A DNA stretch of 34,615 nucleotides, from the IMG/VR virus record IMGVR_UViG_3300031418_000062; one strand, written 5' to 3'. A program made the position numbers and the translations under genes. The notes beneath the pieces are model-generated. The model saw only the letters and a program-made list of their open reading frames with translations. It made no database searches and was not told the DNA's origin. Each line of letters opens with the position of its first letter. Within the stretch, counting starts at the first letter, position 1. Positions 5,226-31,916 of this stretch are shown here, one piece after another. The DNA is from a virus.

Positions 5226-6248
5226 ATGAAAAACGCAACCCGCCTCAAATACACCGCCTACCTGGTCCAGGTGGCACTGCTGAATGGCGTCGCCAGCGCA
5301 GCGGAGAAATTCACCGTCGAGCCGTCCGTCCAGCAGACCCTGGAAACGAAAATCCAGGAGTCGAGCGACTTCCTGACCAAGATCAACATCGTGCCGGTCA
5401 CCGACATGAAGGGCGAAAAGCTCGGCCTTGGTCTGGGCGGCACCATCGCCGGCCGCACCGACACCAGCAAGGCCGAACGCAATCCGAGCGATCCGACCAG
5501 CCTGGAAGGCAACGGCTACGAATGCACCAAGACCGACTTCGACACCCTGGTCAAGTACGTCAAGCTGGACATGTGGGCGAAGTTCCCGGACTTCCAAACC
5601 CGCATGCGCGACCTGGTCATCAAGGCCCAGGCACGCGACCGGATCCTGATCGGCTTCAACGGCGTGGACCGCGCAGCGACCACCGACCGCGTGAAATTCC
5701 CGATGCTGCAGGACGTGAACAAGGGCTGGCTGCAGAAGTACCGCGAGGAAGCCCCGGCCCGCGTCATGAGCGAAGGCGCGCACGCTGGCCAGGTCCGCGT
5801 CGGCGCCGCTGCCGGCCATGACTACGTCAACCTGGACGCCCTGGTGATCGATGCGGTCAACAACCTGGTGGGCGAGGTGTACCAGGAAGATACCGAGCTG
5901 GTCGTGATCTGCGGCCGCAAGCTGCTGGCTGACAAGTACTTCCCGATCGTGAACAAAGACCAGGCGAACACCGAAGCGCTGGCCGCTGACCTCATCATCA
6001 GCCAAAAGCGCATCGGCAACCTGCCGGCCGTCCGTGTTCCTGGCTTCCCGGCCAATGCCCTGATGGTCACGCGCCTGGACAACCTGTCGATCTACTACCA
6101 GGAAGGCGCCCGCCGCCGTTCGGTGATCGACAACCCGAAGCGCGACCAGGTGGAAAACTACGAATCGAGCAACGAGGATTACGTGGTCGAGGACTACGCC
6201 GGCGGTTGCGTGGTCGAGAACGTCACCCTGGAATGGGCGGCTGCATAA
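5226..6248 (+). CDS. N: Major capsid protein (P2 gpN family)
   Basis: 340 aa, positioned between O and M. Calling it a P2-family major capsid protein rests on length, position and overall sequence character. Confidence 0.92.
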   Translation: MKNATRLKYTAYLVQVALLNGVASAAEKFTVEPSVQQTLETKIQESSDFLTKINIVPVTDMKGEKLGLGLGGTIAGRTDTSKAERNPSDPTSLEGNGYECTKTDFDTLVKYVKLDMWAKFPDFQTRMRDLVIKAQARDRILIGFNGVDRAATTDRVKFPMLQDVNKGWLQKYREEAPARVMSEGAHAGQVRVGAAAGHDYVNLDALVIDAVNNLVGEVYQEDTELVVICGRKLLADKYFPIVNKDQANTEALAADLIISQKRIGNLPAVRVPGFPANALMVTRLDNLSIYYQEGARRRSVIDNPKRDQVENYESSNEDYVVEDYAGGCVVENVTLEWAAA

Positions 6249-19439: not shown

Positions 19440-22400
19440 ATGTCGAACGATCTGAGATTACGAGTGCTGTTCAACCTGGCCGACAGCATCACCGGGCCCC
19501 TGCGCAATATCCGGCAAGGGAACGACGACGTCGCCAAGTCTTTGCGGGAAACTCGGAACCGCCTCAAGGAGCTGAACAAGACCCAGGCCGAGATCGGCGC
19601 GCTGCGCGAGCTGCGCACCGGCATGGCGGCCACGGCCGGCGAGCTGAACGCGGCCAAGACCCGGGTGGCGTCGCTCGCCCAGGCGCTCCACGCAAACGGC
19701 CCGCCAACCCAGGCAATGGTCCGGGACTTCGAACAGGCCCGGACGGCCGCGCGCGCGCTGCAGGACCAGCACCGCCAGCAATACGTCCAGCTGCATCAAC
19801 TCCGCACCGGCCTGGCCGGCGCCGGCATCGACACCCGCAACCTGTCCCAGCACGAGCGCGACCTGCGCCAGAACATCCAGGCCACCACGGCCGACATGCA
19901 ACGCCAGCAGCAACAGCTGGCCGAGCTGGCCGCGCGCGAGCGCCGCCTGGGCGAGGCCCGGGCGCGCATGCAGCGCACCCAGGAGACCGCCGGCAAGATG
20001 ACCAGCACCGGCGCGGGCATGGCTGCAGCCGGCGCCGTCACCACGGCCGCGCTGTCGGTCCCTGTGACCGAATACGCGAAGGCCGAGGACTCGGCCACCC
20101 AGCTGTCCGGCGCCCTGATGCGCGCCGGCGGCGTGGTCCCTCCCGAGTTCGAGAAAATCAACGCCCTGGCCATGAAGCTGGGCGATCGCCTGCCCGGCAC
20201 CACGTCGGACTTCCAGGACATGATGACGATGCTGACCCGCCAGGGCATCTCGGCGCAGACCATCCTGGGCGGCATGGGCGAGGCGGCCGCGTACCTGGGC
20301 GTGCAGCTGAAAAAGACGCCGGCAGAGGCGGCCGAGTTCGCGGCCAAGATGCAGGACGCGACCAAGACCACCGAAAAGGACATGCTCAGCCTGATGGACG
20401 TGATTCAGCGGACCTTCTACCTGGGCGTGGACGATAACAACATGCTCAACGGCATGGCCAAGCTCAGCCCGGCCATGGACACGATCAAGATGAAGGGCCT
20501 GGAAGGGGCCAAGGCCGTGGCGCCGCTGCTGGTGATGGCCGACCAGTCCGGCATGGCCGGCGAAGCCGCGGGCAACGCCTACCGGAAGATCTTCCAGATG
20601 GGCATGGACAAGAAGAAGATCGACAAGGCCAACAAGGGTCTGGCGCCGGCGCAGCGCCTGGACTTTACCGATGGAAAGGGCGAATTCGGCGGCTTTGACA
20701 AGATGTTCAAGCAGCTGGACAAGCTCAAGGGCCTGACCACGCAAAAGCGCCTGTCTGTCCTCAAGGAAGTTTTCGGGGATGATGCCGAAACGCTGCAAGT
20801 CGTCTCCCTGCTGATGGAGAAAGGCGTCGACGGCTACCGCGAGGTGCAGGGCAAGATGGCCGCCCAGGCCTCCCTGCAGGAGCGCGTCAACCAGCAGCTC
20901 GGCACCCTGAAAAACCTGTGGGAAGCTGCCGGCGGCACCTTCACCAACACCATGGTGGCCTTCGGTGAAACGCTCGCCCCCGAATTGAAGGCAACCACGG
21001 AATGGCTCGGAGACACGGCCCAGAAGATGGGCGCATGGGCGCGCGAGAACCCGCGTTTGTCTGGTGGCCTGATGAAAACCGTGGCCGCCCTCGGGATCCT
21101 GCTCACCGTCGGCGGCGCGCTGCTGGTGATGCTCGGGACCGTCCTCGGCCCCCTGGCAATGCTCAAGTTCAGCCTGACCACCCTCGGCATGCAGGGCGGC
21201 CTCATGGCGAACGTGTTCCGGATGGCCATATCACCGCTCAAGCTGCTGGGCCAGGCCGTGCTATTCATCGGCCGCGCCATGCTGATGAACCCCATCGGCC
21301 TGGCAATCACCGGGATCGCCGTCGCCGCCTTCCTGATCTACAAGTACTGGGGCCCCATCAAGGAATTCTTTGGCGGTCTGTGGGACCAGGTGAAAGCCGC
21401 GTTCAACGGCGGCATCGGCGCGATCGGCGCCCTGCTGGTGAACTGGTCGCCAGCCGGGCTGTTCTACCGAGCCTTCGCCGGCGTGATGTCCTATTTCGGC
21501 ATCGACATGCCTTCCAAGCTGTCGCAGTTCGGCGCGAACATCATCACCAGCCTGGCCACCAGCCTGGCCCCGATCGGCGCCTTTGTCGGCGGATTGTGGG
21601 ACCAGATAAAGACGGCTTTCAACGGGGGCATCGGCTCGATCGGCGCCCTCCTGGCTAACTGGTCCCCGGTCGGGCTGTTCTACCAGGCCTTCGCCGCGGT
21701 GATGTCCTATTTCGGGATCGACCTGCCGGCCAAGTTCTCGACCTTCGGGGCGAACATCATCGCCGGCCTGGTCAACGGCATCACCGGCGGCCTGGGATCC
21801 GTCCAGACCGCAATCACGGCGGCCGCCGACAGCACGGTGGCCTGGTTCAAGGAAAAACTGGGAATCAAGAGCCCGAGCCGGGTGTTTGGCGAGCTGGGCG
21901 GCTTCATCAGCCAAGGCGCCGCTGTCGGGATCGAAGGCGAGCAGGGAAAGGTAGCCAAGGCGATCGCGGCCCTGGCAACGGTCGCCTCGGCCACGTTCAC
22001 GCCTGCTGTCACTGTTGCCGCCCAGCTGCCCACGACGCCGCCGGCGCAGCTGCAGCCGGTGGTGGCCGCGGCCAAGTCGCCGGCAGCGGCACCGGCACCG
22101 GCCCAGCTGCAGCCGGTGGTGGCCGTGGCGAAGTCGCCGGCAGCAGCGCCGGCACCGACCCAGCTGCAGCCAATGGCGGCCGCGGCCAAGTCGCCGGCAG
22201 CGGCACCGGCACCGGCCCAGCTGCAGCCAATGGCGGCCGCGGCCAAGTCGCCGGCAGCGGCGGCGGCGCCGGCCCAGCTGCAGCCGGTGGTGGCCGTGGC
22301 GAAGTCGCCGGCAGCGGCGGCGGCGCCGGCCCAGCTGCAGCCAGTGGCGGCCGCGGCGAAGTCGCCGGCAGCGGCGGCGCCGCCGGCCCAGCTGCAGCCG

Positions 22401-22925
22401 GTGGTGGCCGTGGCGAAGTCGCCGGCAGCGGCACCGGCACCGACCCAGCTGCAGCCAATGGCGGCCGCGGCCAAGTCGCCGGCAGCGGCGGCGGCGCCGG
22501 CCCAGCTGCAGCCGGTGGTGGCCGTGGCGAAGTCGCCGGCGGCGGCGGCGCCGGCCCAGCTGCAGCCGGTGGTGGCCGTGGCGAAGTCGCCGGCGGCGGC
22601 GGCGGCGCCGGCCCAGCTGCAGCCAGTGGCGGCCGCGGCGAAGTCGCCGGCAGCGGCGGCGCAGCCGGTGACGGCCGCGGCCAAGGCGTCGATCGTCAAC
22701 CCGGTCCCGATCGACACGCGCGCATCCGTGCTCACGCCGAAGGCCGGCGCAGGATCCGCAGCTGGCGGCGCCGGCGCTGCAGGTGGCGGGAATAACACGT
22801 ACACCATCAACATCAACCCCGCTCCAGGGATGGACCCGGCCGCGATCGCGCGCGCCGTGGCCGCTGAACTGGACCGCCGCGAGCGCGCGAAGCAGTCGCG
22901 CATCGGCTCGCGCCTGACCGATTGA
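19440..22925 (+). CDS. T: Tail tape measure protein (P2 gpT family) with an internal 72-aa duplication and an 11-copy 19-aa tandem repeat
   Basis: 1161 aa. It has a helical N-terminus, hydrophobic central segments and sits between E/E' and U. Confidence 0.92.
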   Translation: MSNDLRLRVLFNLADSITGPLRNIRQGNDDVAKSLRETRNRLKELNKTQAEIGALRELRTGMAATAGELNAAKTRVASLAQALHANGPPTQAMVRDFEQARTAARALQDQHRQQYVQLHQLRTGLAGAGIDTRNLSQHERDLRQNIQATTADMQRQQQQLAELAARERRLGEARARMQRTQETAGKMTSTGAGMAAAGAVTTAALSVPVTEYAKAEDSATQLSGALMRAGGVVPPEFEKINALAMKLGDRLPGTTSDFQDMMTMLTRQGISAQTILGGMGEAAAYLGVQLKKTPAEAAEFAAKMQDATKTTEKDMLSLMDVIQRTFYLGVDDNNMLNGMAKLSPAMDTIKMKGLEGAKAVAPLLVMADQSGMAGEAAGNAYRKIFQMGMDKKKIDKANKGLAPAQRLDFTDGKGEFGGFDKMFKQLDKLKGLTTQKRLSVLKEVFGDDAETLQVVSLLMEKGVDGYREVQGKMAAQASLQERVNQQLGTLKNLWEAAGGTFTNTMVAFGETLAPELKATTEWLGDTAQKMGAWARENPRLSGGLMKTVAALGILLTVGGALLVMLGTVLGPLAMLKFSLTTLGMQGGLMANVFRMAISPLKLLGQAVLFIGRAMLMNPIGLAITGIAVAAFLIYKYWGPIKEFFGGLWDQVKAAFNGGIGAIGALLVNWSPAGLFYRAFAGVMSYFGIDMPSKLSQFGANIITSLATSLAPIGAFVGGLWDQIKTAFNGGIGSIGALLANWSPVGLFYQAFAAVMSYFGIDLPAKFSTFGANIIAGLVNGITGGLGSVQTAITAAADSTVAWFKEKLGIKSPSRVFGELGGFISQGAAVGIEGEQGKVAKAIAALATVASATFTPAVTVAAQLPTTPPAQLQPVVAAAKSPAAAPAPAQLQPVVAVAKSPAAAPAPTQLQPMAAAAKSPAAAPAPAQLQPMAAAAKSPAAAAAPAQLQPVVAVAKSPAAAAAPAQLQPVAAAAKSPAAAAPPAQLQPVVAVAKSPAAAPAPTQLQPMAAAAKSPAAAAAPAQLQPVVAVAKSPAAAAPAQLQPVVAVAKSPAAAAAPAQLQPVAAAAKSPAAAAQPVTAAAKASIVNPVPIDTRASVLTPKAGAGSAAGGAGAAGGGNNTYTININPAPGMDPAAIARAVAAELDRRERAKQSRIGSRLTD
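22041..22664 (+). repeat. In-frame tandem repeat, 11 copies of 57 nt (one copy 54 nt), encoding PAQLQPVVAVAKSPAAAAA-type units inside the tape measure gene
   Basis: Units start at 22041, 22098 and so on, with period 57. The copies differ by a few substitutions (V/M, A/P). Confidence 0.95.
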
Positions 22926-24687: not shown

Positions 24688-24822
24688 TGTCTAACAAACC
24701 ACGGTTTTTTAGACACTCAACAAGAAAGGGCCAACCGGCCCTTTTTTCACACTGGAAGTGTCTAAAAACCCTGTATAGTTTTCTATGTCTAACAAACCAC
24801 GTTGAAACTTAATTTTTATACA
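24688..24822. promoter_or_regulatory. Cluster of TGTCTA-type half-sites (candidate res/operator site) upstream of the recombinase operon
   Basis: A 28-bp near-perfect palindrome, TGTCTAACAAACCacGGTTTTTTAGACA, lies at 24688-24715. Further half-sites are TGTCTAAAA (24759), TGTATAGTT (24772), TGTCTAACAAACCACG (24786, an exact repeat of 24688-24703) and an inverted TGTATAAAA (24814-24822). Confidence 0.55.
24725..24747 (+). terminator. Short GC hairpin plus T6 (possible terminator of the tail operon), embedded in the TGTCTA cluster
   Basis: aaagggcc aacc ggccctttttt. The A-run upstream could make it bidirectional. The stem is only 5-6 bp. Confidence 0.5.
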
Positions 24823-24838
24823 GAAAGGGTAGGTTCCT

Positions 24839-25075: not shown

Positions 25076-25527
25076 AAACCGTTCTTATGATGCCGCGCCG
25101 CTTCGGCCGGACCGCGATCGCGCGCGCGCTGCGCGCCACCGGCGACGACCAGCTGACGCCCGAGCAGTACCGGGCGCTGTTTCAAGGCGAATTCTCGATC
25201 GAGGCCAAGGACCGCGAACTGGTGGCCCTGGCCGAGGAGTACGACCGCCGCACCGAGCTATACGACCGCACGGTCTGCACCGGCCCGATCGGACCGGATG
25301 GGATCATGCCGGCGACGCCGGCCGAGCTCGCGGCGATCAACAGGCACGCCGACCAGGTGCGGCGCGAGCTGGTCGACCGCGCGATGCGCGCCGGCTTCAC
25401 CGCGGCGCAGTTCAAGGAAGCGATGATGCACCAGGTGCGGCAAGGCCCCGCGGCCGTGGCCGCGCAGGCGGCGCGCCAGGATCGCCCCCCGACCTGGATC
25501 GGGATGGACTTCGGGAAGGAGGCGTAA
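25072..25527 (+). CDS. Hypothetical protein (151 aa)
   Basis: Translationally coupled at both ends (ATGA at 25072, TAATG at 25525-25529) with high GC3. No recognisable motif. Confidence 0.55.
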   Translation: MKTVLMMPRRFGRTAIARALRATGDDQLTPEQYRALFQGEFSIEAKDRELVALAEEYDRRTELYDRTVCTGPIGPDGIMPATPAELAAINRHADQVRRELVDRAMRAGFTAAQFKEAMMHQVRQGPAAVAAQAARQDRPPTWIGMDFGKEA

Positions 25528-26171
25528 TGCGACACCCGACCGCCACCAACAACCTGGACATCATCACCGGAGGCCTGCTGATCGGCTACGCCCGGGTGTC
25601 CACGGTCGACCAGAACCTGGACCTGCAGCGGGACGCCCTGCAGCGCGCCGGGTGCGGCCAGATCTATGAGGACAAGGCCAGCGGCCGCGCGAAGTCGGGC
25701 CGGCCCGAGCTGGCGGCCGTGCTGCGCGCGCTGCGCGCCGGCGACACCCTGGTGGTCTGGCGCCTGGACCGCCTGGCGCGATCGCTGGTCGACCTGGTGC
25801 AGATCATCAACGAGCTGGGAGAAAAGGGGATTGGCTTCAAGAGCCTGACGGAACAGATCGACACCTCGAGCGTGCAAGGCCGGTTGTTCCTGGGCGTGTT
25901 CGCAGCCATGGCGCAGTATCAGCGCGACGTCATCCACGAAAACACGATGGAGGGATTGAAGGCAGCTCGAGCACGCGGTCGCATGGGCGGCCGGCGGTCG
26001 AAGCTGGGAGAACAGGAGATCCGGGAGATCGAGGCGCTGTTGAAGGATCCGCAGATCACCGTGGTGGACGTGGCCAAGCGCTACGGGGTGAGCCGGGCCA
26101 CCATTTACAACGCCCTGGGGAAGAAACAGCCTACCGCACAGCTCGCACTACCGAGTGGCAATAGCCAATGA
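25527..26171 (+). CDS. Small serine recombinase (resolvase/invertase family)
   Basis: IGYARVSTVDQNLDLQRDAL (catalytic Ser motif), LVVWRLDRLARS and a C-terminal HTH (VAKRYGVSRATIYNAL). At 214 aa it is the size of a Tn3/Hin-class enzyme, not a large serine integrase. Confidence 0.93.
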   Translation: MRHPTATNNLDIITGGLLIGYARVSTVDQNLDLQRDALQRAGCGQIYEDKASGRAKSGRPELAAVLRALRAGDTLVVWRLDRLARSLVDLVQIINELGEKGIGFKSLTEQIDTSSVQGRLFLGVFAAMAQYQRDVIHENTMEGLKAARARGRMGGRRSKLGEQEIREIEALLKDPQITVVDVAKRYGVSRATIYNALGKKQPTAQLALPSGNSQ

Positions 26172-26778
26172 TCTGCAGCCGGTCCCGATCGGCGGCCGGC
26201 ACAACCTCCGCGACATAGCCCGGGCTATCGCACGACATACGCAGCGATCCATCCACCATGTGCTGGATCCTGCGGAAATAAGCATGGGTATCATCGAAGC
26301 GCACCAGGTAAAGCCCATCTGCAGACTGCTGAGCGCAATTCACCAGGACCACGTGCCCTTCGGGTAGCGTGTCCGCCATAGCATCCCCCACCACCCGCAC
26401 GGCGATAACGTCACCAGCTTCCAGTCGCTCCTGGTCAAGCCATTGCCGCGGCACGTACCAGGATTGTTCCTCGAACGCCTTCGGCCAGTCCATCGCATCC
26501 AATAATGGCACCTCGACCATGTGGGCCGGGATCGGGGCCGGCGCCGCGCCGCCGGCTTCCTTTGTGCCCCTTCCCAGAATCAGCCAGTCCAGGCTGATAT
26601 TCCGATCGAGCGCAAAAATGACGCATTCGTCATAGGGGATTGAGCCCCGATTCTTTAGCACGCTGATAAAGCCGCGCGACCCACCAAGCACCTCGGATAA
26701 CTCTTTGTCTAATTGGATGCCAAGCACAGTTTTCATTCTGTCGATTATGTCTGTTACGGATGGCTTATTTTGTTCCAT
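26131..26778 (-). CDS. cI: CI-like immunity repressor: N-terminal HTH plus a degenerate S24 (LexA/CI/UmuD-type) C-terminal domain
   Basis: The N-terminus LGIQLDKELSEVLGGSRGFISVLKNRGSIP is HTH-like. The C-terminus aligns with the S24 fold but reads GDAM instead of G(D/N/M)SM, and AYFRRI instead of FTVKKL. The 3' end overlaps the recombinase gene by 41 nt. Confidence 0.85.
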   Translation of the reverse strand: MEQNKPSVTDIIDRMKTVLGIQLDKELSEVLGGSRGFISVLKNRGSIPYDECVIFALDRNISLDWLILGRGTKEAGGAAPAPIPAHMVEVPLLDAMDWPKAFEEQSWYVPRQWLDQERLEAGDVIAVRVVGDAMADTLPEGHVVLVNCAQQSADGLYLVRFDDTHAYFRRIQHMVDGSLRMSCDSPGYVAEVVPAADRDRLQIIGYCHSVVRAVR

Positions 26779-27156
26779 TTTTGAGCTTTACATTGCAAAA
26801 GGTTGTCCGAAGTTGCTGCGCGGAACCGGAGTAGAGCGTACAATTTACGGAGCGCAATGTTGGCTTACAAAATGTTACTTTTATTGTAATCACGCATTGC
26901 AAATTGTAGTTCTGACATCCACTTTCTTGCCATTTGTCACTGAGAAACACTGTACGGATATACAGTATTATTGAGCCTTACACAGTGATCGCGGTTGGCT
27001 GTTGAGAGTGGGAAACGACGCCGGTGCGCGAGGGGATTATCTACCGAACAGCATCTATCGCCTATGAAAAAGGCGTAACGGCATAGCAATAATGCCGCAA
27101 AGCAATAAAAGGAACGGTTTGGACTTGTCCGCCAGGGATCGCCAGGAATTACACAA
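26779..27156. promoter_or_regulatory. Immunity switch region (divergent promoters/operators), AT-rich relative to the genome
   Basis: 378 nt with no credible ORF. CATTGCAAA repeats at 26791 and 26895, with an inverted cattgcg at 26853-26859. Also the inverted repeat TTACAA/TTGTAA (26865-26889), cactgt/acagtg (26948/26982) and the LexA box. Confidence 0.6.
26950..26965. promoter_or_regulatory. LexA (SOS) box CTGT-N8-ACAG in the cI/ogr switch region
   Basis: cACTGTacggatatACAGTa matches 16 of 20 positions of the E. coli-type consensus TACTGTATATATATACAGTA, with both CTGT and ACAG arms perfect. Confidence 0.65.
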
Positions 27157-27414
27157 ATGAGCCTGAGAATTACAATCTGTTGCCCACATTGCGAATCGAA
27201 AGCAAACGCGCGCACCAGCAAGGCGCTTTCCGCTACCTTGAGGGAAATAGTTTACGTTTGTGTAGACCCTGAGTGCGGACATACCTACGTTGCGCAGCTT
27301 GAGGTGGTTCGTACTCTTTCGCCGTCGGCAAAACCTAAAAAAGACATCCGGCTCCCGATTTCGCCACACGTAATGGCGATGTTGAGAGAACAGCTGGAGT
27401 TATTACCCGCGTGA
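27157..27414 (+). CDS. ogr: Ogr/Delta-family zinc-finger late-gene activator
   Basis: CPHCESKANARTSKALS...REIVYVCVDPECGHTY has the CxxC...RTS...C....C pattern and spacing of P2 Ogr / P4 Delta. Confidence 0.85.
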   Translation: MSLRITICCPHCESKANARTSKALSATLREIVYVCVDPECGHTYVAQLEVVRTLSPSAKPKKDIRLPISPHVMAMLREQLELLPA

Positions 27415-27764
27415 TCGAAGAGAAACCTATGCACAAAGCCATGCAACCTAATCCGCTTTACACCCTTGCAATCGAATTTCTGCAGCAACACCAGGACGAG
27501 CATCTGACACCGGATCGCCCCCGCCTCATCGCCCGTTGCGCTTATCACCTGATCGACCGCGCGACGGCCAGCCTGGACGAAGCCACGGACGTGGCCCGGC
27601 AAGCCTTTGGCGAGCTGACGGCCGGCACCTGCCGCTCCTATATCAACCTTGACCTCACCACGAGTTACGCCCTCTTCATCAACGGCCCGGACGGCAAGAA
27701 GCGCTGCTACCCGCTGCCGGAAGTGCTGCGCGTGATTCGCCAGGCTGCGGCCGGCGCCCTGTAA
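27411..27764 (+). CDS. Hypothetical early protein (111-117 aa)
   Basis: ORF coupled to ogr (GTGA overlap; alternative ATG at 27429). No recognisable motif. Confidence 0.55.
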   Translation: MIEEKPMHKAMQPNPLYTLAIEFLQQHQDEHLTPDRPRLIARCAYHLIDRATASLDEATDVARQAFGELTAGTCRSYINLDLTTSYALFINGPDGKKRCYPLPEVLRVIRQAAAGAL

Positions 27765-27846
27765 TACCCAACCACGACTAGACCCTGCCGCAGCTGGAGA
27801 CGCTGCGGCAATACCACGTGGTGACGCCCGAGAAAGAGGTTGCAAG

Positions 27847-30624
27847 ATGGCTAATATTGACGAAGTAAAACGGATCGTAAACCCTCGGCTGCATGACCTG
27901 GCCTCCAGGCTCGGCATCAAGCAGGGAAAGGGTGGCGACGATGCGCTGTATCACTCGCCGCACCACCCCGACAAGAATCCCTCCCTGTCGATCTACATCG
28001 ACCATCCCAAGCACGGCACCGGCTGGAAGGACCACAGCGGCGACGCCGGCGGCTCCTGCATCGACATGGTGATGTTCACCCAGGGCTGCAGCGCCTCCGA
28101 TGCCCTGAAATACCTGCACCAGGAATACGCGATCCCCTTCGACACTCCGGATAAGCCGGCCCAGGAAAACAAGAGCATGGTCGAGTACATTGCCGACCGC
28201 TGCATCGCCGCCCGCGAGAAGGTGCGGGACTACCTGCAGGGCCGCGCGATCGGCGCCGGCGCGATCGATGCCGCGCTGCGCGCCAAGACCCTGGGATTCA
28301 ACGAATGGACCAGCCCGAAGAAACAACCAGGTGAGGTGGGCTATGGCGGCCCGGCTGCGGCCTTCATCGTGCGCTCGCCCGACACCAGCCAAGTGGTGGC
28401 CGTCGACATGCGCTTCCTGGATCCGGCCCAGAATGGCGACGTCAAGACGCAGGCCCAGGGCGAGAAGGACGGCTACTACTGGACCGCCGACCCCCGCAAG
28501 CTCGAGCGCGCCCAGCGCGTGTACGTGGTCGAAAGCCCGATCAACGCCCTGTCGATCGACACCTGCAGCATCCCCAAGACTGCAGCGATCGCCCTCCGCG
28601 GCCTCAGCAACGCGTCGACCATCGACCTGGCCTTCCTGCAGGGCAAACAGGTGGTGATCTGCATGGACAACGACGAGCCCTTCCCGGACGGCCACCAGCG
28701 CGCCGGCCAGCGTCCCGGCCCAGAGGCCGCCTGGATCCTGTACGAGCGCCTGACCGCCATCAACATCAGCGCAGTCCTGGTCGACCAGGAGGAGTGGGAC
28801 AAGGTTGAAGGCGACGAGAACGGCGGCAAGCCGATCAACGACGTGAACGACTACCTGCAGGCGCGCGGCGCGCAGAAGCTGGCCAAGGCCCTGGACACCT
28901 ACGAGACCTGGCTGATCGCCGGCATGGCCGGCAACGTCTCGCGCAAGGGCCGGGCGCGCGTCTACCTGCCAGCACACGATTACGCCCAATACTGGAAATT
29001 CCGGCCGCACCTGGACTTCACCAAGTACATCGCCAGGATGGACGAAAACAAGGAAACCGGCGACGAGACCCCGATCTACCACGACCTGTGCGGTTTCCGG
29101 GTCGCATCCCTGAGCCGGGTATCGGTCGCCAGCTCGACCGCCACCATGACCGGCGATCGGGACCACTCCCCTACCGTGTACTTTTCCGTGACGGTCCAAG
29201 TTCCCCGCCACGGCCCCGAGCTGGTCCGCAAGGTCCTGATGGACGACCAGCTGCACAACACGAACACCTGGACGAAGTTCGGCCCGATCTGGAAGCCGGC
29301 CGAATTCTCGCGCATGGTGAGCATCCTCGAGCGCACCGCGGATCTCGGCGCACGCAAGGCCGCCAACTTCGTGGGCCTGGCCTGGCTCGACGGCCGCCTG
29401 GCTGTCAACGAGGGGCCGGACTGCTATTTCACCGAAGCCGAGAAGCAATGCACGTATCACAACCTGACGTTCCCTTCCGGGCCGACCGCGAACGCGCGCA
29501 GGGTCATCAAAGCGTATCAGGCCACCTACACCAGCAACGCCGGCGCGATCCCCCTGGTCTGGGCACTCGGCGGCCACCTCAAGGCCTTCCTGGGATTCTG
29601 GCCACACATCACGATGCAGGCCGACAAGGGCGCCGGCAAGTCCACCCTGGTGAAGCGCCTCGAGCGCTCCCTGGCCTTCACCATGTTCTCGGGCCAGAGC
29701 CTGCAGACGGAATTCCGCCTGATGACCAGCATCAGCTACACCAGCCATCCGGTTGGCTGGGAGGAGCTGAGCGCCCGCCGCACCGACGTGATCGACAAGG
29801 CCGTGGCGATCCTGCAGGAGTCGTATCAGTACACCACTACCAAGCGCGGCTCCGAAATGACCGAGTTCCTGCTGTGCGCGCCGGTGATGCTGGCCGGCGA
29901 GGACGTGCCCGTTAAGAGCCTCACCGGCAAGGTGGTCCGGACGGATCTGACCAACAAGGCCAACGGCTTCATGGCCGACGACCTGCCCCACTTCCCAGTG
30001 CGCCAGTGGCTGGAATTCCTGACCAAGCTCGACAAGGCCACCGTGCTGGAGAAGTACGCCGGGCTGCGCGAGTACTGCCTGAAAAACAGCCGCGCCGGCG
30101 GCGACGACAGCGGCGCCAGGCGCATGGCCGGCAACTACGCGGCCGTGCTGCTGGCCTGGGGACTCCTGGCCGAGTTCGCCGGCATGGACTATTCCGAAGG
30201 TGCATTCGGCAAGGACCTCCTGGCCGAGATGAACGCCCATATTTCGGAGACCAGCAGCGACCGCTCGCCGTGGGTCTGGATCATGGAAACGGCGCTGTCC
30301 GAGATCGACGCCAGCAACTTCAAGCACCCGTACAAGTTCGAAGTGGTGGACGGCAAGGATTGCCTGCTGGTGCGGCCGCAGCACATCATGGACCACCTGT
30401 CGAGCTCCTCGAGCCTGCGCGAGAAGTGGAATTCTCTGCCGGTCAAGACCGCTGCAGTGTTCAAGCGTCAGATGATGTCGGCCGGGATCCTGTTGCTGGA
30501 CGAAGCCGGGAAGCCCAAGGAACTGGAGCGGACCATTTTGATGCGCCGCGTTGGCCACCTCTCCGCGATCCCGCTCGAGGCCTTGAACAACTTCGGCCTG
30601 TCGGTCGGCTGGCGGAACGAGTAG
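27847..30624 (+). CDS. Bifunctional primase-helicase-like replication protein (degenerate zinc-finger region, toprim domain, P-loop NTPase)
   Basis: 925 aa. Toprim motifs VYVVESPINALS and VVICMDNDEP, and Walker A ADKGAGKST. The overall layout resembles P4 alpha / DUF927-type phage-plasmid primase-helicases. Confidence 0.85.
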   Translation: MANIDEVKRIVNPRLHDLASRLGIKQGKGGDDALYHSPHHPDKNPSLSIYIDHPKHGTGWKDHSGDAGGSCIDMVMFTQGCSASDALKYLHQEYAIPFDTPDKPAQENKSMVEYIADRCIAAREKVRDYLQGRAIGAGAIDAALRAKTLGFNEWTSPKKQPGEVGYGGPAAAFIVRSPDTSQVVAVDMRFLDPAQNGDVKTQAQGEKDGYYWTADPRKLERAQRVYVVESPINALSIDTCSIPKTAAIALRGLSNASTIDLAFLQGKQVVICMDNDEPFPDGHQRAGQRPGPEAAWILYERLTAINISAVLVDQEEWDKVEGDENGGKPINDVNDYLQARGAQKLAKALDTYETWLIAGMAGNVSRKGRARVYLPAHDYAQYWKFRPHLDFTKYIARMDENKETGDETPIYHDLCGFRVASLSRVSVASSTATMTGDRDHSPTVYFSVTVQVPRHGPELVRKVLMDDQLHNTNTWTKFGPIWKPAEFSRMVSILERTADLGARKAANFVGLAWLDGRLAVNEGPDCYFTEAEKQCTYHNLTFPSGPTANARRVIKAYQATYTSNAGAIPLVWALGGHLKAFLGFWPHITMQADKGAGKSTLVKRLERSLAFTMFSGQSLQTEFRLMTSISYTSHPVGWEELSARRTDVIDKAVAILQESYQYTTTKRGSEMTEFLLCAPVMLAGEDVPVKSLTGKVVRTDLTNKANGFMADDLPHFPVRQWLEFLTKLDKATVLEKYAGLREYCLKNSRAGGDDSGARRMAGNYAAVLLAWGLLAEFAGMDYSEGAFGKDLLAEMNAHISETSSDRSPWVWIMETALSEIDASNFKHPYKFEVVDGKDCLLVRPQHIMDHLSSSSSLREKWNSLPVKTAAVFKRQMMSAGILLLDEAGKPKELERTILMRRVGHLSAIPLEALNNFGLSVGWRNE

Positions 30625-30910: not shown

Positions 30911-31216
30911 TTACCTGTTCGCCTCGCGTTCCTCGGCCGCGATGAAGCGCGAGACCGCCAGCGCGAACGCTGCCGCACGGCTGAGGCCAAGCGCGGCGGC
31001 CTTGTTGTCCAGTGCCGCCAGGATATGCGCGTCGATCGTCAAGCTGATCGGCTTCTTTCTGCCGCCTTTCGGAATCAACGCCGGCGCCGGCGTCGACGTC
31101 GCACTCGGCTTAGCGTCCGGCGCGGCGCCGATGAGGGCCGCGACCTGATCTTCGGTTACGCCTGGCTTGAGCCCTGCCGGATTGCTACCTGGGCGGGGCA
31201 AGATTTTCGATACCAT
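30911..31216 (-). CDS. parG: Ribbon-helix-helix (ParG/CopG-like) partition adaptor / centromere-binding protein
   Basis: 101 aa immediately downstream of ParA. It has a disordered Pro/Ala-rich N-terminus and then KPISLTIDAHILAALDNKAAALGLSRAAAFALAVSRFI, an RHH pattern. Confidence 0.65.
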   Translation of the reverse strand: MVSKILPRPGSNPAGLKPGVTEDQVAALIGAAPDAKPSATSTPAPALIPKGGRKKPISLTIDAHILAALDNKAAALGLSRAAAFALAVSRFIAAEEREANR

Positions 31217-31256: not shown

Positions 31257-31916
31257 CTACTTTGACCTGTCCGCGAATGCGCGAATGTCCTCGAGCAGGT
31301 TGTACATTTCGTTGCGGGCGTCCGGTGGTGCGCCCTTGAATTCGCTGATATGACGGCCGGCCGCGCTGGCATGGGAGAACGCCTTGCGATCGCCCAGCCT
31401 GCATTTGCTGATCTCAAAACCAAACTGAGACACATATTCAATCGACGCCTCGTTGTCGGCCTCTTGACCAGCTGGATCCGCCTTGTTCAGGAAAGCCAAC
31501 ACCTTGAAGTCTTTCACCTGCTGCATTTCCCGGGCCAGATTCACTGTATTTTCGAATGCCCACACATCGAACGAGCGTGGAGCAAACGGAAACACCATCA
31601 CGTCACACAGCGACAACGCGGCCCGCATCGCGCCTGAATCCTTTGCCCCCACGTCGATAACCACGTCATCGAAGTTCCCCGCCTGCAGGAGCACCTGGGC
31701 ACGCATGGACGGGCCATCCGTCAGCGGCACCGATGGGATCCCAGGCAAATCCGCCAGGATCCGGGCGGTAAGGGCCAGGTGCATGGAGGTCTGTTCATCG
31801 TCCCCATCGACCGCCCAAACCCTACGCCCGGCCAGGGACAAGCCGGTCACCAGTTGCACCGAGGTGGTGGACTTGCCAACGCCGCCCTTTTTATTCGCTA
31901 CTGCATAGATTGTCAT
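31257..31916 (-). CDS. parA: ParA-family partition ATPase (small, type Ib-like, no N-terminal HTH)
   Basis: The deviant Walker A AVANKKGGVGKSTT is at the extreme N-terminus. VWAVDGDDEQTS is also present. 219 aa. Confidence 0.9.
   Translation of the reverse strand: MTIYAVANKKGGVGKSTTSVQLVTGLSLAGRRVWAVDGDDEQTSMHLALTARILADLPGIPSVPLTDGPSMRAQVLLQAGNFDDVVIDVGAKDSGAMRAALSLCDVMVFPFAPRSFDVWAFENTVNLAREMQQVKDFKVLAFLNKADPAGQEADNEASIEYVSQFGFEISKCRLGDRKAFSHASAAGRHISEFKGAPPDARNEMYNLLEDIRAFADRSK

Follow-up and report, generated by a model that had tools for sequence, protein, structure and literature searches.

Temperate phages that respond to the SOS signal do so by three routes: through a repressor that cleaves itself, as in lambda; through an antirepressor under LexA control, as in 186, N15 and Gifsy; or, rarely, through LexA acting directly on lytic promoters, as in CTXphi and GIL01. 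The question raised by the present locus is which of these routes could be served by a LexA-type palindrome that lies between the divergent cI and ogr genes of a phage contig of 34,615 bp (the window, by which we mean the whole stretch of DNA analysed).

By its gene content the window is a complete, phage-sized plasmid-prophage of the KS14/FLC5 type (Peduoviridae, Kisquattuordecimvirus-like). It has the KS14-like hallmarks of P2-type tail and head genes, a serine recombinase instead of a tyrosine integrase, a divergent ogr/gp3/Toprim-primase operon and a partition gene. Tail genes D, U and T are followed by a Gin/Hin-like (invertase-like) serine recombinase (25527..26171, plus strand), which is convergent with the cI repressor gene (26131..26778, minus strand) as in KS14 and FLC5. 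Divergent from cI on the plus strand are ogr, encoding an Ogr/Delta zinc-finger late-gene activator (27157..27414; PF04606, E = 2e-19), the KS14 gp3-like orf117 (27411..27764; phrog_3461), whose GTG start overlaps the ogr stop codon, and a KS14 gp2-like Toprim primase/helicase-like replication protein assigned by homology (27847..30624). A ParA-like partition ATPase, a hallmark of plasmid-prophages, is encoded on the minus strand at 31257..31916 (CbiA/MipZ/ParA Pfam hits); the 101-aa protein adjoining it matches a repressor-like family. What the window lacks of the KS14-like traits is the Arc-like gene that opens the early operon, between cI and ogr; only a frame-broken 3' relic of it remains. 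The original prediction compared the switch with those of P2 and 186, but in its switch genes the phage is like neither; with its serine recombinase and its ParA it belongs among the KS14-like plasmid-prophages.

The closest characterised relatives, KS14 and FLC5 (Burkholderia, Kisquattuordecimvirus), share with the window tail D/U/T, the serine recombinase, cI, the divergent ogr-like/gp3/Toprim primase operon and the -10 block of the early promoter described below, but they have the Arc-like first early gene, carry no LexA box, and their cI is only ~35% identical to that of the window. KS14 is kept as a plasmid prophage (PMC3091744). The window's cI was found on contigs of 34.2 and 34.6 kb, with relatives on contigs of 32-39 kb, all replicon-sized, and a scan of a genome collection returned one near-identical MAG contig. 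Relatives have been assigned to Oxalobacteraceae (the MAG), Pseudoduganella (Massilia) dura, Duganella and Cupriavidus, all of them Burkholderiales; judging from relatives only, the host of the prophages grouped below as clade A is probably a member of the Oxalobacteraceae.

The palindrome is a LexA-type 20-mer, CACTGTACGGATATACAGTA (also written cACTGTacggatatACAGTa), at 26948-26967, with its CTGT-N8-ACAG core at 26950-26965. A near-consensus SOS box had been predicted here, with both CTGT and ACAG arms perfect and 16 of 20 positions in agreement with the classical operator, and a direct count against TACTGTATATATATACAGTA gave just these values. The predicted distances hold as well: the cI ATG (26778, minus strand) is 170 nt away from the box, and the ogr ATG (27157) 190 nt. 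CTGT-N8-ACAG occurs once in the whole window; the bare 4+4 core is unremarkable alone, with an expectation of 0.33 matches per window and one or more matches in 27 of 100 shuffles. The original prediction had also suggested scoring the site by a scan of the whole element, for which we used a weight matrix of 11 E. coli SOS boxes, taken from a starting set of 24 and each confirmed exactly within seven regions of MG1655, from upstream of recA, lexA (two), uvrA/ssb, uvrB, sulA, umuD, recN (two) and dinI. With a uniform background the box scored 20.3 bits, inside the range of 18.8-27.6 bits spanned by the 11 verified E. coli boxes, the matrix here being that of E. coli and the host being known through relatives; under a 65% GC background the same 11-box matrix gave 23.4 bits. 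The feature was accordingly annotated as a predicted LexA (SOS) box (26948..26967, no strand) on a matrix score of 20.3-23.5 bits and on conservation. It is the sole strong LexA-type site in the 34.6 kb. The runner-up, at 24806-24825 (AACTTAATTTTTATACAGAA; 13.2 bits, uniform background), was rejected as an SOS box, as it has no CTGT arm and the motif is gone in more distant clade-A genomes. The box score was attained in none of 300 windows from a first-order Markov simulation, and in 0.06% of simulated 378-nt AT-rich intergenic sequences. The palindrome CTGT-N8-ACAG and its TACTGTAT...ATACAGTA-like flanks fit the E. coli / beta-gamma-proteobacterial LexA operator, and the E. coli-type motif holds for most beta- and gamma-proteobacteria and is the accepted motif for Burkholderiales (PMC3323433).

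We followed the site through ~100 loci that were collected from viral and metagenome collections via a profile of cI homologues, each locus being scored for cI identity, dyad residues, LexA boxes and neighbour genes. A DNA-level search of the phage collection with the switch region returned the primase gene only. Loci with a cI at least 50% identical to that of the window were defined as clade A (the window, L001, L004-L010, L082, L085, L086 and L107). All 12 distinct switch regions of clade A, in which cI identity is 50-78%, keep the box 168-192 nt from cI, and wherever the region is present the box scores 23.5-32.9 bits. In an alignment of 11 clade-A switch sequences, 17 of the 20 box columns are invariant, and the three that vary (C/T, C/T, G/A) shift toward the consensus, as in TACTGTATAGATATACAGTA, which reaches 32.9 bits. 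By comparison, only 3 of the 37 columns directly upstream of the box are invariant in the same alignment, and this variable spacer between the promoter/operator region and the box (26885..26945) has indels of 10-11 nt. As most of the box is invariant while the adjacent spacer diverges, it forms an island of constraint rather than a by-product of recent ancestry.

Clade B comprises ~45 distinct loci, KS14 and FLC5 included, with cI 32-44% identical to that of the window. Each has an Arc-like (ribbon-helix-helix) first early gene of ~60 aa and no box between cI and ogr, whereas the Arc-like gene is absent throughout clade A. The ogr start lies at a similar distance from cI in both clades, 350-400 nt in clade B and 378-390 nt in clade A, and the box occupies the slot of the Arc-like first early gene of the ~45 KS14/FLC5-like relatives. 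Because the genomes with a box in the switch all belong to one clade, the anticorrelation between box and Arc-like gene counts as a single evolutionary event and not as repeated evidence. A sub-clade of B, termed B1 (L012, L013, L014, L016, L087 and L089), carries a TACTGTATGnGTATACAGTA motif (TACTGTAT..ATACAGTA) of 22-30 bits at another place, directly beyond the cI terminator hairpin and ~150 nt downstream of the stop codon of cI. In B1 the cI recognition region and the TTAC-type operators are unlike those of clade A and the Arc-like gene is retained. That the same motif is found despite another cI, other operators and another position implies a host factor rather than a phage protein, and suggests that the family took up the motif on at least two occasions, each time in a different architecture.

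These comparisons bear on the reading in which the palindrome is not a LexA site at all and would instead be a hairpin in the leader RNA of the early promoter Pe, a site bound by one of the phage's own proteins (cI, Ogr, the serine recombinase or a partition protein), or a palindrome that arose by chance and was kept by recent ancestry. In its favour, the 9-nt arms would be able to pair as a hairpin (I9), the clade is of fairly recent origin, with an intergenic region 75% identical overall, and a strong matrix hit in one relative (L096 5605) resembles a hairpin with a 12-bp stem rather than an operator. However, the arms show no covariation, the 'loop' is conserved and drifts toward the AT-rich LexA consensus, and the stem is AT-rich, with no intrinsic terminator called at or before the box. 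An invertase (gix/hix-like) or partition site was rejected, as the palindrome bears no resemblance to one and is present in one genomic copy, whereas such sites occur as pairs or arrays. The DNA-binding domain of cI is a Phage_CI_repr HTH, unlike that of LexA, and the candidate cI operators are of the TTAC type. Together with the recurrence of the motif in B1 beside a different cI and at a different position, and with an upstream spacer that has diverged heavily where the box has not, this makes a non-LexA identity quite improbable. The palindrome is very probably a real host-LexA operator.

If LexA binds here, the other two routes for an SOS signal have to be considered. The cI protein resembles repressors of the lambda-type cI/LexA (S24 peptidase) class in its N-terminal HTH and C-terminal S24-like domain (Pfam: Phage_CI_repr HTH plus S24-like domain) but differs in that its catalytic dyad has been replaced. 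In an alignment with E. coli LexA, A133 of cI takes the place of S119, and R169 that of K156 (GDAM/FRR). All scorable clade-A cI proteins have GDAM/[FP]RR except that of L005 (GDSM/FRR); the same or equivalent dyad losses are seen in most of clade B, and more distant relatives keep GDSM/[IV]KR. The linker Ala-Gly is not conserved either. With Ser and Lys replaced and the linker Ala-Gly not conserved, RecA-stimulated self-cleavage of cI is not expected, which argues against lambda logic. The accessory ORFs gave no match to an antirepressor or Tum-like family, and the matrix scan returned no second LexA box in the genome that could drive an antirepressor. In the absence of a tum-like gene the arrangement is not that of 186, in agreement with the original prediction, which had further judged the locus closer to CTXphi and GIL01. 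Given the lack of an antirepressor and the loss of the cI dyad, direct LexA control of early and late-activator transcription, a CTXphi/GIL01-like logic, is indeed the best reading. The geometry is suitable for it: the box is followed by a leader and then by ogr, the first intact gene downstream, orf117 and the primase gene, with no intervening antirepressor.

The original prediction had placed the box in the only plausible early-promoter region. This part did not survive an alignment of the 105 nt nearest to cI in ~40 loci of clades A and B, KS14 and FLC5 among them, which uncovered a conserved early promoter, Pe, beside cI. Its -10 element, TACAAT in the window (26839..26844, plus strand), lies inside an invariant block, GAGTAGAGCGTACAATTTAC (26829-26848), 104 nt upstream of the LexA box. 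At the aligned position the loci have TACAAT, TATAAT, TAGAAT or TATACT, always within GAGTAGAGCGTAcAATTTAC (window 26829-26848), so that one element is common to the whole family, and the pattern of substitutions at 26839-26844 fits a plus-strand (rightward) -10. In clade B, Pe stands directly before the Arc-like gene, and behind Pe come TTAC/GTAA-type repeats. The putative cI operator region (26845..26880, no strand) contains TTAC repeats (TTTAC, CTTAC and GTTAC) that are conserved in clade A and in the clade-B locus L011. Half-sites of the TTAC/GTAA type recur in every sub-clade, the details differing from one to the next, as would be expected of phage-specific operators, and none is conserved near the LexA box; we infer an operator role from this pattern. 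A window-specific 17-nt palindrome (I2; 26854-26870 / 26884-26900) was discarded as a cI operator because its right arm is not conserved beyond L001. For the cI promoter there are several candidates, for example TTGTAA-17-TAAATT on the minus strand at 26870-26842, none of which is conserved across sub-clades. The proposal that LexA sits directly in the lysis-lysogeny switch thus stands as far as the box does lie, conserved, between cI and ogr; it is modified in that LexA would more likely act in parallel, as the gate of a bypass promoter, than from within the cI operator region.

What lies between Pe and ogr in clade A became clearer from L011, whose Pe/operator region is nearly identical to that of clade A and which served as the reference. 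Homology between the window and L011 runs through Pe to ~26879, is lost where the Arc-like gene of L011 begins, and returns inside the 3' half of that gene. In the matching frame, positions 27033-27095 of the window read GIIYRTASIAYEKGVTA, against GIIYRAGLKAYLKGVDAQQ in L011, each followed by a stop. Local DNA alignment to the L011 Arc-like gene gave z scores of 8.0 (window) and 14.9 (L086), above all 200 shuffles. A protein-HMM test of the leader against Arc-like proteins gave at most 6.7 bits, at a consistent place and no better than shuffled controls. In-frame stops close the relic frame in L007, L008, L009, L010, L082 and L107, leaving it broken in half of clade A. On these comparisons the segment at 27033..27095 (plus strand), part of an untranslated leader at 26972-27156, is a decayed gene and not a short ORF: the 3'-half relic of the Arc-like gene, which occupied the Cro/Apl position. 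The box would have arisen in the ancestral slot of this gene, of which the 5' half is gone and the 3' half persists as a non-coding relic.

The leader was also searched for other functions. A small ORF or antirepressor within its 190 nt was rejected, as no ORF is conserved and indels and in-frame stops vary between relatives. Rfam returned nothing at E <= 1 for 26000-28000, and a structured leader RNA was likewise rejected, the RNAalifold consensus reaching only -4.2 kcal/mol with almost no covariation; one small conserved hairpin, GGCAT..ATGCC, is found at ~27078-27097. A long-range pairing (I3) of 26900-26913 with the ogr start region (27166-27179), which would mask ogr in Pe transcripts only, was treated as coincidence; its apparent compensatory change (TTGTA/TACAA vs TTGAA/TTCAA) holds in only 6 of 11 sequences. 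A further candidate, I4, is not conserved.

Within the former first early gene lies a second candidate promoter, P_SOS, directly at the box. Its -10 hexamer, TATTAT (26966..26971, plus strand), starts with the last two positions of the box, and the aligned hexamers (TATTAT, TATGAT, TAAAAT and TAGAAT) conform to TAnnAT in all 11 sequences. The final AT (26970-26971) is invariant though it lies outside the LexA motif. As the T and A at the start of the hexamer are also part of the LexA consensus, only these two invariant bases back the -10 independently. The -35, GAGAAA (26942-26947, 18-nt spacer), is weak, agreeing with consensus at 3 of 6 positions, and because of it P_SOS was not called in a stringent sigma-70 consensus scan. 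No Ogr-type TGT-N12-ACA activator site was seen by eye at about -55 of P_SOS, where the region is not conserved. Downstream, 20 nt past the ACAG arm, an ACAGTG (26982..26987, plus strand) has an invariant ACAG and a nearly invariant TG; it may mark the initial transcribed region of P_SOS, or else an additional LexA half-site, whose corresponding left arm is not conserved. From the abutting hexamer and its invariant AT we infer that P_SOS is a LexA-occluded rightward promoter.

LexA could also bind the box with no promoter present there. The box lies within the transcribed leader of Pe, and LexA bound ~100 nt past the Pe start might act as a roadblock or attenuator on Pe transcripts running into ogr, tuning early and late-activator expression without any bypass of cI. 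Pe is the only strongly conserved promoter-like element in the region, which together with the weak -35 of P_SOS and its absence from the consensus scan speaks for such a role. The TAnnAT hexamer with its invariant AT outside the LexA motif would, however, be left unexplained, and with an uncleavable cI still on Pe the removal of a roadblock would not induce the prophage, so that the SOS input would do little. Bound repressors are, moreover, generally weak roadblocks to elongating RNA polymerase. We consider this arrangement unlikely.

The direction of transcription from the box can be questioned in the same way. In P2 and 186 the Pc/pL promoter lies downstream of the early promoter and faces it, and LexA might here control transcription leftward out of the box, in the direction of Pe and cI, from a face-to-face lysogenic promoter or as an interfering transcript, such that SOS would alter cI expression or cause collisions with Pe transcription. 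The B1 box has TTGnnn hexamers on both sides, 17-18 nt from its TACTGT arms, which makes a leftward LexA-controlled promoter plausible in that sub-clade, and the cI promoter itself has no confident location. Around the clade-A box, though, the alignment holds no conserved minus-strand -35 or -10 or other promoter element on that strand, the correctly spaced hexamers being GATCAC and CACTGT, and the complement of TAnnAT varies in a manner unlike a minus-strand -10. A cI promoter de-repressed during SOS would also oppose induction. A leftward role for the box in clade A therefore seems very unlikely.

The arrangement that we favour, with some reserve, is a full bypass of cI by two rightward promoters in tandem between cI and ogr, a cI-gated Pe and, 120 nt downstream, a LexA-gated P_SOS. 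Pe would presumably be shut off by the phage cI, and LexA on the box would cover the spacer of P_SOS and the first two bases of its -10. In a lysogen Pe would be held by cI and P_SOS by LexA. Upon DNA damage, RecA-stimulated cleavage of LexA would free P_SOS, which would supply Ogr for the late genes and the primase/helicase for replication while leaving cI intact. When a naive, unstressed cell is infected, LexA is intact and no cI has yet built up; the same genes would then be transcribed from Pe. As all intact early genes (ogr, orf117 and the primase/helicase gene) lie downstream of both promoters, LexA cleavage alone would switch them on and might suffice for induction; with cI uncleavable and P_SOS held by LexA, SOS would bypass cI. 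Two qualifications apply to this model. Since the replication gene of a plasmid-prophage has to be on in the lysogen, the picture of both promoters being off is probably incomplete, and a regulated leak or an internal promoter must exist. In addition, as the cI operators and the cI promoter have no confident location, control of P_SOS by cI is possible.

Comparison with characterised switches places this model among known ones. The likeness to 186 and to P2-like phages with a LexA-controlled tum (p95-tum) is that a Peduoviridae-type phage receives the SOS signal through host LexA on an SOS box, with no repressor autocleavage; the E. coli HS phage DuoHS is a further P2-like phage with a LexA-controlled tum (PMC12055606). 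In 186, however, LexA represses a separate promoter of the antirepressor Tum, which inactivates CI, whereas here no gene lies between the box and ogr, no homolog of Tum or of another antirepressor was found, and the box is the sole one. It would gate the early and late-activator operon directly.

Direct repression of phage promoters by LexA occurs in CTXphi and GIL01 (PMC4551915). CTXphi is similar to the model for the present locus in that the region between the repressor gene and a divergent replication/early operon is the target of both host LexA and a phage repressor, with LexA cleavage directly de-repressing phage genes. Kimsey and Waldor reportedly showed in 2009 that PrstA of CTXphi is under LexA plus RstR. 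There both repressors act on one promoter, whereas here two tandem promoters are suggested, one for each repressor; CTXphi is also a filamentous phage whose genes are not homologous to those of the window. The tectivirus GIL01 of Bacillus thuringiensis employs LexA plus gp7 at P1 (PMC4551915, PMC6182141). GIL01 likewise is an extrachromosomal (plasmid) prophage with lytic genes held off by host LexA on SOS boxes of the early promoter, but it has no cI-type repressor, needs the small co-repressor gp7 and carries several boxes of Gram-positive motif, in contrast to the full-length cI and the single beta/gamma-type box found here. To our knowledge the present phage has no gp7 analogue. The locus differs from both CTXphi and GIL01 in combining a full cI with a single box and, apparently, with a LexA-gated promoter that lies behind a cI-gated one and was born inside a decayed gene at the Cro position.

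If the model is right, the locus would be a P2-family example of the direct-LexA route with a distinct architecture, in which promoters under the phage repressor and under host LexA stand in tandem before one early operon. The evolutionary path to it could also be traced: cI gave up its dyad, the Cro-like gene decayed until it was no more than leader, and the box appeared in the slot of that gene. A more tentative scenario, which we put forward as possible, is that the clade-A lineage handed induction over to its host, losing autocleavage and the Cro/Apl-like gene and evolving a LexA-gated bypass promoter within the decayed gene, with LexA and cI as independent locks for induction and infection, respectively, and that B1 acquired on its own a LexA box downstream of cI, which may drive antisense transcription into cI. 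One phage family would then have recruited LexA more than once, by mechanisms that differ. The model predicts that those KS14-like phage-plasmids that can be induced by DNA-damaging antibiotics are the carriers of the box, which would be of relevance where such temperate phages are combined with fluoroquinolones. KS14 itself has no box and has a Lys-to-Arg change in its cI. KS14 lysogens show no sensitisation to ciprofloxacin (PMC12780198), in keeping with the box as the element that confers the SOS input.

Within the leader of the late-gene activator gene ogr, 27033-27095 is what remains, with its frame broken, of the 3' half of an Arc-like (ribbon-helix-helix) gene. This relic is still ~75% conserved within clade A, the loci whose cI is at least 50% identical to that of the window, and it may therefore have acquired a role at the DNA or RNA level. 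The Arc-like gene is retained in sub-clade B1, which belongs to the same phage family as the window. Sequence scoring in these B1 loci also gives a strong candidate LexA-type box (22-30 bits) ~150 nt 3' of the cI stop, immediately past the cI terminator hairpin. The box lies at 3838-3857 in L013, one of the loci fetched with the cI homologue profile, and at 1136 in L012, 3830 in L014, 3822 in L016/L088, 1202 in L087, and 3902 in L089. On both sides it has TTGnnn hexamers at 17-18 nt from TACTGT arms. LexA may control an antisense transcript here, directed against cI or against the convergent recombinase or 165-aa gene.

In the window cI (26131-26778), both catalytic residues of the S24-like domain are gone, with A133 and R169 in the motifs GDAM/FRR. 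Loss of the dyad is common across the KS14-like family, as in the cI proteins of KS14 (GNSM/LRR) and FLC5 (GNVM/LRR); GDSM/[IV]KR is retained in the cI of remoter relatives.

Several other palindromes and SOS-like sites were noted. Just downstream of the early promoter Pe, an imperfect palindrome with 17-nt arms, GCAATGTTGGCTTACAA / TTGTAATCACGCATTGC (26854-26900), was seen only in the window and in the clade A locus L001, and may represent an operator layout particular to that lineage. At 24699-24790, in the stretch that separates tail gene D from the orf78-orf157-recombinase operon, the inverted copies TTTTTAGACAC / GTGTCTAAAAA surround a strong terminator-like hairpin, AAAGGGCCAACCGGCCCTTTTTT, and similar TAGACA motifs recur in relatives. 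The AT-rich half SOS-like site AACTTAATTTTTATACAGAA (24806-24825), which precedes the 78-aa ORF by 14 nt, scores 13.2 bits on a uniform background and is conserved only among the closest relatives; it probably belongs to a promoter and is not a LexA site. A perfect palindrome with a 12-bp stem in the related locus L096, CGTTATGCTGTA-TGTATC-TACAGCATAACG (5596-5630), reaches 24.9 bits when scored as a LexA box. This palindrome falls in the interval separating tail gene D from the upstream cluster and may be a hairpin and not an operator.

Elsewhere in the window, a ParA-like ATPase (31257-31916, minus strand) adjoins a 101-aa repressor-like protein (phrog_18157; 30911-31216, minus strand), forming a partition module that fits a plasmid-prophage lifestyle. 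The contigs of isolate-genome relatives are 34-39 kb. GC content peaks locally at 0.80, compared with ~0.65, in 22001-22500, within the 1161-aa ORF at 19440-22925 that is presumably the tape-measure gene.
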